Source: Escherichia coli
GTDB taxonomy: Bacteria; Pseudomonadota; Gammaproteobacteria; Enterobacterales; Enterobacteriaceae
DNA: 38,946 nucleotides
NCBI RefSeq assembly: GCF_003334255.1
Contig: NZ_QOWU01000055.1
Direction: 5' to 3' (one strand)
Shown here: piece by piece, positions 5,410-37,294 of the stretch
Layout: each line of letters starts with the position of its first letter
How positions within the stretch are numbered: position 1 is the stretch's first letter
Program-made: the position numbers and the translations under genes
The notes under the pieces: generated by a model
Told to the model about the DNA's origin: nothing
The model's database searches: none
Seen by the model: only the letters and a program-made list of their open reading frames with translations

Positions 5410-5617
<208 letters not shown>

Positions 5618-15217: not shown

Positions 15218-15315
15218 GCCTGATGCGCTACGCTTATCAGGCCTACATTTTCTCCGCAATATATTGAATTTGCGCGGTTTGTAGGCCGGATAAGGCGTTC
15301 ACGCCGCATCCGGCA
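15218..15315. repeat. BIME (two inverted REP elements) downstream of uvrB
   Basis: GCCTGATGCGCTACGCTTATCAGGCCTAC (15218-15246) and GTAGGCCGGATAAGGCGTTCACGCCGCATCCGGCA (15281-15315) with a conserved linker. Confidence 0.85.
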
Positions 15316-15371: not shown

Positions 15372-16340
<969 letters not shown>

Positions 16341-16477
16341 TTAACCTGCCAATATTGAGGATACAAACTATTTTCTTCTACCTCTAAAGGACGATGCACG
16401 CTATGCCTCCCTGATGATGTATATCAAAGTAAAACCGCCATTTTCCCTTATTCTGTAGCGAAATAGCACGATCATGA

Positions 16478-16501
16478 CGCTATATACATGATTACATAGC
16501 G
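16478..16501. promoter_or_regulatory. ModE-type operator palindrome upstream of moaA
   Basis: CGCTATATA-CATGAT-TACATAGCG inverted repeat, resembling the known molybdate-regulator operator architecture. Confidence 0.55.
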
Positions 16502-16529
16502 AAAGTGTGGATGGTAAAAATCTCATTTA

Positions 16530-16676
16530 CACGCTAGTATCGGCATAACCACTAAACACTCTAGCCTCTGCACCTGGGTCAACTGATACGGTGCTTTGGC
16601 CGTGACAATGCTCGTAAAGATTGCCACCAGGGCGAAGGAAGAAATGACTTCGCCTCCCGTATCTGGAAAGGTGTAC
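16530..16676 (+). ncRNA. Moco riboswitch (cis-regulatory RNA) in the moaA 5' leader
   Basis: Leader ends with GAAGGAAGAAATGACTTCGCCTCCCG just before the moaA start, as expected for the molybdenum-cofactor RNA motif. The 5' boundary is approximate and no structure was computed. Confidence 0.55.
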
Positions 16677-17666
16677 ATGGCTTCACAACTGACTGATGCA
16701 TTTGCGCGTAAGTTTTACTACTTGCGCCTGTCGATTACCGATGTGTGTAACTTTCGTTGCACCTACTGCCTGCCGGATGGCTACAAACCGAGCGGCGTCA
16801 CCAATAAAGGCTTTCTTACCGTCGATGAAATTCGCCGGGTTACGCGCGCCTTCGCCAGTCTGGGCACCGAAAAAGTGCGCCTGACAGGAGGAGAGCCGTC
16901 TTTACGCCGCGACTTTACCGATATCATCGCCGCTGTGCGGGAAAACGACGCTATCCGCCAGATTGCGGTCACAACCAATGGTTACCGTCTGGAACGCGAT
17001 GTGGCGAGCTGGCGCGATGCGGGACTTACTGGCATTAACGTCAGTGTCGACAGTCTGGACGCCCGCCAGTTTCACGCTATTACCGGGCAGGATAAATTCA
17101 ACCAGGTCATGGCAGGGATTGATGCTGCATTTGAGGCCGGTTTTGAGAAGGTCAAAGTCAATACCGTGCTGATGCGTGATGTTAATCATCACCAGCTCGA
17201 CACCTTTCTGAACTGGATCCAGCATCGCCCTATCCAGCTGCGTTTCATCGAACTGATGGAAACGGGCGAGGGCAGCGAGCTCTTCCGTAAGCATCACATC
17301 TCTGGTCAGGTTCTGCGTGACGAGCTACTGCGTCGCGGCTGGATCCACCAATTACGTCAACGCAGCGACGGTCCCGCGCAAGTCTTTTGCCATCCAGATT
17401 ACGCCGGAGAGATTGGCCTTATCATGCCGTATGAAAAAGACTTCTGCGCCACTTGCAACCGCCTGCGCGTTTCCTCCATTGGTAAACTCCATCTCTGCCT
17501 GTTTGGTGAAGGCGGCGTTAACCTGCGCGATCTGCTGGAAGACGATACCCAGCAACAGGCGCTGGAAGCGCGTATTTCAGCGGCGCTGCGGGAGAAGAAA
17601 CAGACCCATTTCCTGCATCAAAACAACACCGGTATTACGCAAAACTTATCGTACATTGGCGGCTAA
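16677..17666 (+). CDS. moaA: GTP 3',8-cyclase (molybdenum cofactor biosynthesis protein A, radical SAM)
   Basis: ORF track frame 16596..17666; ATG at 16677 ([31 protein letters not shown]) giving 329 aa. Confidence 0.95.
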
Positions 17667-31921: not shown

Positions 31922-32020
<99 letters not shown>

Positions 32021-37165: not shown

Positions 37166-37294
37166 ACTTGTGCTGGACGTAGCGTAAACGCCTGATCCGT
37201 CCAACGGTTCGGATTTTGTAGGCCTGATAAGACGCGGTAGCGTCGCATCAGGCATCTGTTGCCGGATGCGGCGTAAACGCCTTATCCGTCCTAC
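37166..37294. repeat. REP/BIME cluster downstream of ybiJ
   Basis: GTAGGCCTGATAAGACGCGGTAGCGTCGCATCAGGC (37218-37253) and GCCGGATGCGGCGTAAACGCCTTATCCGTCCTAC (37261-37294), plus a partial REP-like segment upstream. Confidence 0.8.

Follow-up and report, generated by a model that had tools for sequence, protein, structure and literature searches.

The window analysed here is a stretch of Escherichia coli DNA of 38,946 nucleotides. It carries uvrB (plus strand), yvcK/ybhK (minus strand) and the moaABCDE operon (plus strand) in that order, and the region of interest is the yvcK–moaA intergenic region (16281–16676), together with the beginning of moaA, which encodes GTP 3',8-cyclase. Positions 16341–16700 are an exact match to E. 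coli K-12 MG1655 (NC_000913.3), in which the corresponding coordinate is the window position plus 800367. Of 5426 complete E. coli genomes, 5425 matched a 501-nt query for the moaA control region, 5065 of them with at least 99% identity. In the E. coli collection there are 5438 matching places, two of them on plasmids; some genomes have the region twice, and a single one of the 5426 lacks it. RefSeq places a feature at the same position in E. coli ('riboswitch | moaA', with the note 'molybdenum cofactor riboswitch'). The features discussed below are listed in Table 1.

Table 1 Features of the moaA control region, in window coordinates. Promoter hexamers, and the GGA motifs as CsrA contacts, are putative assignments.
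Feature	Position	Strand	Details and basis
FNR-type box	16414..16427	.	ATGATGTATATCAA; pattern, conservation, literature
Distal promoter S2 (putative)	16449..16461	+	-10 TATTCT 16449-16454; start ~16460-16461
ModE site	16478..16501	.	CGCTATATA-CATGAT-TACATAGCG; consensus match, conservation
Proximal promoter S1 (hexamers putative)	16512..16547	+	weak -35-like TGGTAA 16512-16517; -10 TAGTAT 16535-16540; start A16547
Moco riboswitch aptamer with built-in expression platform	16545..16689	+	RF01055, covariation, RefSeq annotation
P1	16547-16561 with 16670-16683
P2	16564-16600		internal loop UCU/UUU 16567-16569/16595-16597
P3	16602-16606 with 16623-16627
P4	16630-16655		GAAA tetraloop 16641-16644
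P5	16656-16657 with 16665-16666		two pairs, CC (of CCUCCC) with GG
GGA motifs (candidate CsrA contacts)	16637..16667	+	16637-16639 (P4) and 16665-16667 (P5/ribosome-binding tract); the only two in the S1 leader
Purine tract and start codon	16665..16679	+	GGAAAGGUG 16665-16673; AUG 16677-16679
moaA CDS	16677..17666	+	first gene of moaABCDE

The whole window was scanned against Rfam 15 at the gathering threshold. Directly upstream of moaA, and overlapping its start, the scan gave a full-length match to the Moco RNA motif RF01055 (model positions 1–135 of 135), which scores 103.6 bits (gathering score 36; E value 6.5e-25). An earlier note, made from the sequence by eye, had proposed a molybdenum cofactor riboswitch here and suggested a covariance-model search, and the match bears it out. 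That note had placed the right-hand boundary at 16676, which cuts off the outer pairs of P1, as the match extends into the moaA coding sequence by about 12 nt.

The stem coordinates in Table 1 were obtained by transferring the structure of the RF01055 model onto the E. coli sequence. The core of P1 pairs ACAC-C (16556–16561) with GGUGU (16670–16674), leaving U16560 bulged. P4 is capped by a GNRA tetraloop, and P2 contains an internal loop as its putative receptor. The E. coli moaA leader is the very sequence studied when the motif was described (Regulski et al., 2008), and the element found here shares with it stems P1 to P5, the GAAA loop on P4, the internal loop of P2, the ribosome-binding site in P1 and the start of a 131-nt leader, without any substantial difference. 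Regulski et al. tentatively separate a form containing P3 from one that lacks it and possibly senses the tungsten cofactor (PMC2408646); the E. coli moaA riboswitch is of the P3-containing form.

The conservation of the element was analysed using 80 gammaproteobacterial loci (Enterobacterales, Vibrionaceae, Aeromonas, Pasteurellaceae and Moritella). These were collected by their MoaA protein alone, and the retrieval was therefore blind to the leader. RF01055 was found directly upstream of moaA in 79 of the 80 loci, with scores of 65–106 bits; only the Rosenbergiella gaditana locus (L069) had no match. The 79 leaders were aligned using MAFFT (alignment A1), which was not fitted to any structure, and the pairs of the E. 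coli-derived structure were then counted on the alignment. Paired cells make up 79.9% of the total, compared to 35–44% when the 3' partners are slid by one to three columns. Compensatory double changes are found in 28 of the 41 pairs (389 cells), and the covariation score of 0.350 compares with 0.08–0.11 for the slid partners and 0.189 for shuffled alignments, none of 500 shuffles reaching the observed value. The bulk of the signal comes from P2, P3 and P4, where 9 of 11, 5 of 5 and 8 of 11 pairs, respectively, show double changes. The low score of P1 arises because MAFFT misaligns two variants of its 5' strand: E. coli, E. albertii and Citrobacter have the form with a bulged U (ACAC-U-C), whereas most relatives have AACUCC. 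The GAAA loop (G97 A98 A99 A100) is invariant in all 79 sequences, and CCUCCC and AAAGG-GU vary little or not at all. The covariation is decisive for the consensus riboswitch structure.

The consensus structure bears directly on the ribosome-binding region. The last bases of the purine tract belong to the 3' strand of P1, and its first two G's are paired in P5. In the model, the ribosome-binding site is sequestered mainly by P1 (16555–16561 with 16670–16675), with a minor share for P5, in agreement with the published statement that it lies within the nucleotides forming P1 (PMC2408646). Sequestration of the ribosome-binding site had been put forward in the earlier note, and stands; the hairpin held responsible there, in which GAAGGAAG pairs with CTTCGCC (GAAG/CUUC), does not, being P4, which makes no contact with the ribosome-binding site. 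GAAGGAAG is found at 16634–16641, and CTTCGCCTCCC at 16648–16658.

Folding of single sequences gives a more mixed picture. For the E. coli leader, the minimum free energy (MFE) fold has -42.0 kcal/mol (z = -1.5) and differs from the consensus structure, which when enforced has an energy of -33.2 kcal/mol, a cost of about 9 kcal/mol. In the competing fold, which replaces both P1 and P2, the 5' strand of P2 (UGCACCU, 16569–16575) pairs with the Shine-Dalgarno (SD) strand (AGGUGUA, 16669–16675), the core being CACCU 16571–16575 with AGGUG 16669–16673. Across the 79 leaders, the MFE fold contains P1 in 64, the alternative between the P2 strand and the SD strand in 9, and other arrangements in 6. 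The nine are E. coli, E. albertii, two Citrobacter and five others. In none of the MFE folds of the 79 leaders is the SD strand open. The expectation in the earlier note that the leader would fold into the conserved structure is therefore borne out by the MFE folds of 64 of the 79 leaders and by the covariation, but not by the MFE fold of E. coli itself. We considered whether single-sequence folding counts as evidence against the riboswitch, and rejected this, given the P1 of 64 of 79 orthologues and the covariation in favour of the consensus. The competing fold in the E. coli clade is a small residual point, and fits the published need for CsrA in activating translation.

Two promoters have been described for the operon. 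Two published constructs that start at S1 begin with (A)ACCACTAAAC (PMC2408646; PMC7815308 supplement), and the S1 leader is stated to be 131 nt long (PMC2408646); together these place the S1 start at A16547. The same paper places the distal start S2 at -87 from S1 (PMC2408646), hence at about 16460. The hexamers assigned to S1 and S2 in Table 1 are inferred. A generic scan of the region yielded no sigma-70 consensus promoter. Such a scan is uninformative here, since both moa promoters deviate from the consensus, and the absence of a strong sigma-70 match fits a dependence of S1 on an activator.

Upstream of S2 there is a box with one mismatch to the FNR pattern TTGAT-N4-ATCAA, the mismatch being in the left half-site (ATGAT). 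Its centre precedes the S2 start by about 40 bp (-39.5 to -41.5, the position of S2 being derived indirectly), and in this it resembles FNR-activated promoters of the class II type. Within the window the FNR pattern was found four times against 1.3 expected, which is near chance level. The pattern within the window alone is thus weak, and the support for the box comes from its conservation and from the literature: it is invariant at 10 positions across 11 genera of Enterobacteriaceae, an FNR ChIP-seq peak has been assigned to moaA (PMC3688515), and the distal promoter is described as FNR-dependent (Anderson 2000, as cited in PMC2408646).

The conservation of the intergenic region was obtained from an unbiased alignment of 11 Enterobacteriaceae genera (alignment A2). 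The conserved blocks are the FNR box, TATTCTGTAG, the two ModE half-sites discussed below, the TGG of the S1 -35 and CGCTAnTATCGGCATAACC around the S1 -10 and start. TATTCTGTAG is conserved and CGCTAnTATCGGCATAACC nearly invariant in the 11 genera, and the blocks are almost free of indels, with single-base gaps in three genera only. In other Enterobacteriaceae genera (loci L005, L007, L018, L014 and others; A2 columns ~300–330), the conserved TCGGCATAACC start region is separated from P1 by a variable insert, at most about 35 nt long. This insert at the 5' end of the S1 leader is missing in E. coli and E. albertii. In the two Citrobacter loci the insert resembles a small hairpin (ACTCGACGTATGACGAGT).

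The second element recognised by eye was a palindrome about 175 bp upstream of moaA, and its position proved accurate, the site ending at 16501, 176 nt before the ATG. No other inverted repeat was reported in 16340–16700. The halves, CGCTATATA (16478–16486) and TACATAGCG (16493–16501), are complementary at 8 of 9 positions and separated by a gap of 6 nt. The E. coli ModE consensus is ATCGNTATATA-N6-TATATANCGAT (PMC545781). The window was scanned with the consensus core CGNTATATA-N6-TATATANCG, allowing up to three mismatches, and the only match in the 38.9 kb is this site, with one mismatch; 0.06 matches are expected from shuffled sequences. Expressed as CGnTATATA-N6-TATATAnCG, 15 of the 16 specified positions are matched. 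The gene for ModE itself (modE, b0761) is at K-12 793856–794644, which is beyond the window and precedes the site by about 22 kb.

In the 250 bp upstream of the riboswitch, a ModE site with at most two mismatches is present in 51 of 55 Enterobacterales moaA loci. The half-sites are near-invariant across these loci, while the 6-nt spacer drifts: half-site columns carry 1.2–2.0 bits and spacer columns 0.2–1.0, mostly 0.2–0.6, values that are inflated by selection of the loci with the pattern. The unbiased alignment A2 shows the half-site blocks to be conserved in the same way. By contrast, there is no site with three or fewer mismatches among the Vibrio, Aeromonas and Pasteurellaceae loci; a Haemophilus locus (L079) has a match with four mismatches. 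The loci of all Vibrionaceae, Aeromonas and Pasteurellaceae have the riboswitch without a recognisable ModE palindrome, and the same is true of L026, L042 and L053 (Pantoea stewartii, Tatumella and an Enterobacteriaceae MAG) and of L071 and L082 (Arsenophonus). The identification of the site as ModE-type, made in the earlier note, agrees with the consensus match, with the conservation in Enterobacterales and with the likeness to the modA operator.

This operator, CGTTATATTGTCGCCTACATAACG, was found with the same ModE pattern in K-12, 20–43 bp upstream of the modA start codon, and we take it to overlap the modA promoter or start region. The ModE operator of modABC and the moaA site have the same inverted-repeat architecture, CGnTATAT-N-TAcATAnCG, and presumably bind the same molybdate-ModE dimer. 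They differ in their reported effect. The modA operator represses, whereas the moaA site, centred at about -57.5 from S1 and beside a weak -35, is reported to be an activator site: the proximal promoter of the moa operon is described as activated by molybdate-ModE (Anderson et al. 2000, as cited in PMC2408646), and a review statement agrees (PMC10845959). Counted from S2, the site occupies about +18 to +41 of the transcript. It is thus a ModE site as the earlier note supposed, but not in general an operator in the leader, since it lies upstream of the S1 start and within the S2 transcript only.

The distance between the ModE site and the start of the RF01055 match scatters from 35 to 141 nt across loci. 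The possibility that there is no fixed promoter geometry was considered on this account and rejected, as alignment A2 traces the scatter to the insert between the start region and P1.

Functional data on the leader have been published. One study of exactly this sequence describes Moco-dependent repression, disruptive and compensatory mutants, and in-line probing; because the ligand is too unstable, it did not demonstrate that Moco itself binds the RNA (PMC2408646). A review calls the exact effector of the riboswitch still unidentified (PMC10845959). Two sites within the aptamer are bound by CsrA, which activates translation of moaA (PMC7652899; PMC4347634). On sequence grounds, the two GGA motifs of the S1 leader are candidate contact sites for it. 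An abundant 3' end was mapped by Term-seq at K-12 817052 (PMC7815308), which is window position 16685, 8 nt into moaA and just beyond the outer P1 pairs; it implies that an aptamer-sized RNA of about 139 nt accumulates. In the same work a bicyclomycin-sensitive Rho region is placed at K-12 817336 (window 16969, some 290 nt into moaA), and a moaA fusion rises more than 2-fold in rhoR66S (PMC7815308).

On the basis of these observations, the stretch is almost certainly the native regulatory region of the E. coli moaABCDE operon, with three stacked controls: FNR at S2, ModE at S1, and the Moco riboswitch. The present analysis shows that the sequence is identical to K-12, that the RNA matches the covariance model and covaries among relatives, and how the DNA sites are conserved and arranged; the dependence on ModE and FNR, the repression by Moco, and the effects of CsrA and Rho are as reported in the literature. 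In this arrangement, the FNR box would serve S2 and give more transcription under anaerobiosis. A molybdate-bound ModE dimer would bind just upstream of the weak -35 of S1 and activate that promoter, and every transcript from S1 would start with the riboswitch aptamer. With plentiful molybdenum cofactor the five-stem fold would be stabilised, and P1 and P5 would keep the ribosome-binding tract (16665–16674) base-paired, leaving moaA untranslated. According to published work, CsrA, at two sites in the aptamer, promotes translation, and Rho terminates transcription inside the untranslated moaA message. The region is a good example of layered control, with FNR, ModE, riboswitch, CsrA and Rho on one stretch of 260 bp.

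Other explanations concern both the RNA and the DNA site. The repression by Moco may be indirect, with a protein or other factor, CsrA and/or Rho, acting as the real switch on a conserved RNA. The absence of demonstrated direct ligand binding (PMC2408646) and the effector described as unidentified (PMC10845959) leave room for this, as do the binding of CsrA to the aptamer with its effect on translation and the Rho-dependent termination within moaA. The SD strand is moreover paired in both the consensus and the alternative predicted folds, which would call for an additional factor to reach the ON state. On the other hand, the RNA has the hallmarks of a metabolite aptamer, namely a conserved multi-stem junction, a GNRA tetraloop with its receptor and covarying stems, and to our knowledge many of the lineages in which the motif occurs lack CsrA. 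In distant phyla the motif is likewise associated with Moco and Tuco genes, its expression platforms vary, and no protein factor was found (PMC2408646). We thus regard indirect repression as distinctly improbable.

It could likewise be argued that the palindrome is a repressing operator that blocks elongation from S2, instead of or besides activating S1. Arithmetic from -87 does place the ModE site downstream of S2, the spacing between the S2 element and the ModE site is conserved, and the site strongly resembles the modA operator, where ModE represses. The published role, however, is activation by molybdate-ModE at the proximal promoter; a fixed geometry between ModE site and S1 explains the conserved spacing equally well, and roadblock data were not found. 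We consider a repressing role of this kind very improbable. It is hardly conceivable that the palindrome arose by chance or serves some other, unrelated regulator. The site is indeed short and AT-rich, but only 0.06 matches per window are expected even at three mismatches; at most two mismatches are seen in 51 of 55 orthologous regions despite the drift of the spacer; and its absence from the Vibrio, Aeromonas and Pasteurellaceae loci, which have different flanks, indicates a specific, lineage-restricted site. The conservation pattern effectively refutes a chance origin, as judged from sequence comparison.

Within the preferred reading of three stacked controls, two variants may be added, and it is rather unlikely that either applies. 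In E. coli, E. albertii and Citrobacter the SD alternative might form in vivo, in which case the ligand-free RNA would also be OFF; or ModE at +18 to +41 might act as a roadblock to S2. If the fold of the P2 strand with the SD strand were real, the ON state would need CsrA or co-transcriptional kinetics, and the element of this clade would be a three-state rather than a simple two-state switch. If there were a roadblock, molybdate would switch promoter usage from S2 to S1.

A ModE site and a Moco riboswitch at moaA are both already known, as the earlier note recognised: the riboswitch is the type Moco riboswitch and the ModE site a classical one. There is nothing novel in their presence, and nothing new on the regulation of molybdenum cofactor follows from it. 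The region serves rather as a positive control, in which two textbook elements of moa were recognised from raw sequence and then confirmed.

A few further matches in the window are worth recording. A terminator-like hairpin (GCGTACGATTGCGC) with a T-poor tail is found on the plus strand at 16265–16278, just within the 5' end of the yvcK coding sequence; it is probably a chance match (one found, 0.4 expected). The Rfam family ES036 (CssrF), a repeat-like small-RNA family, matches with about 43 bits at 15239–15280 (-), which is the uvrB–yvcK intergenic region, and at 31943–31985 (-). Matches to naRNA4 (CssrE) are found at 5492–5562 (+), with 60.7 bits, and at 37221–37291 (-), with 78.4 bits; both are intergenic palindromic repeat units of the REP type.
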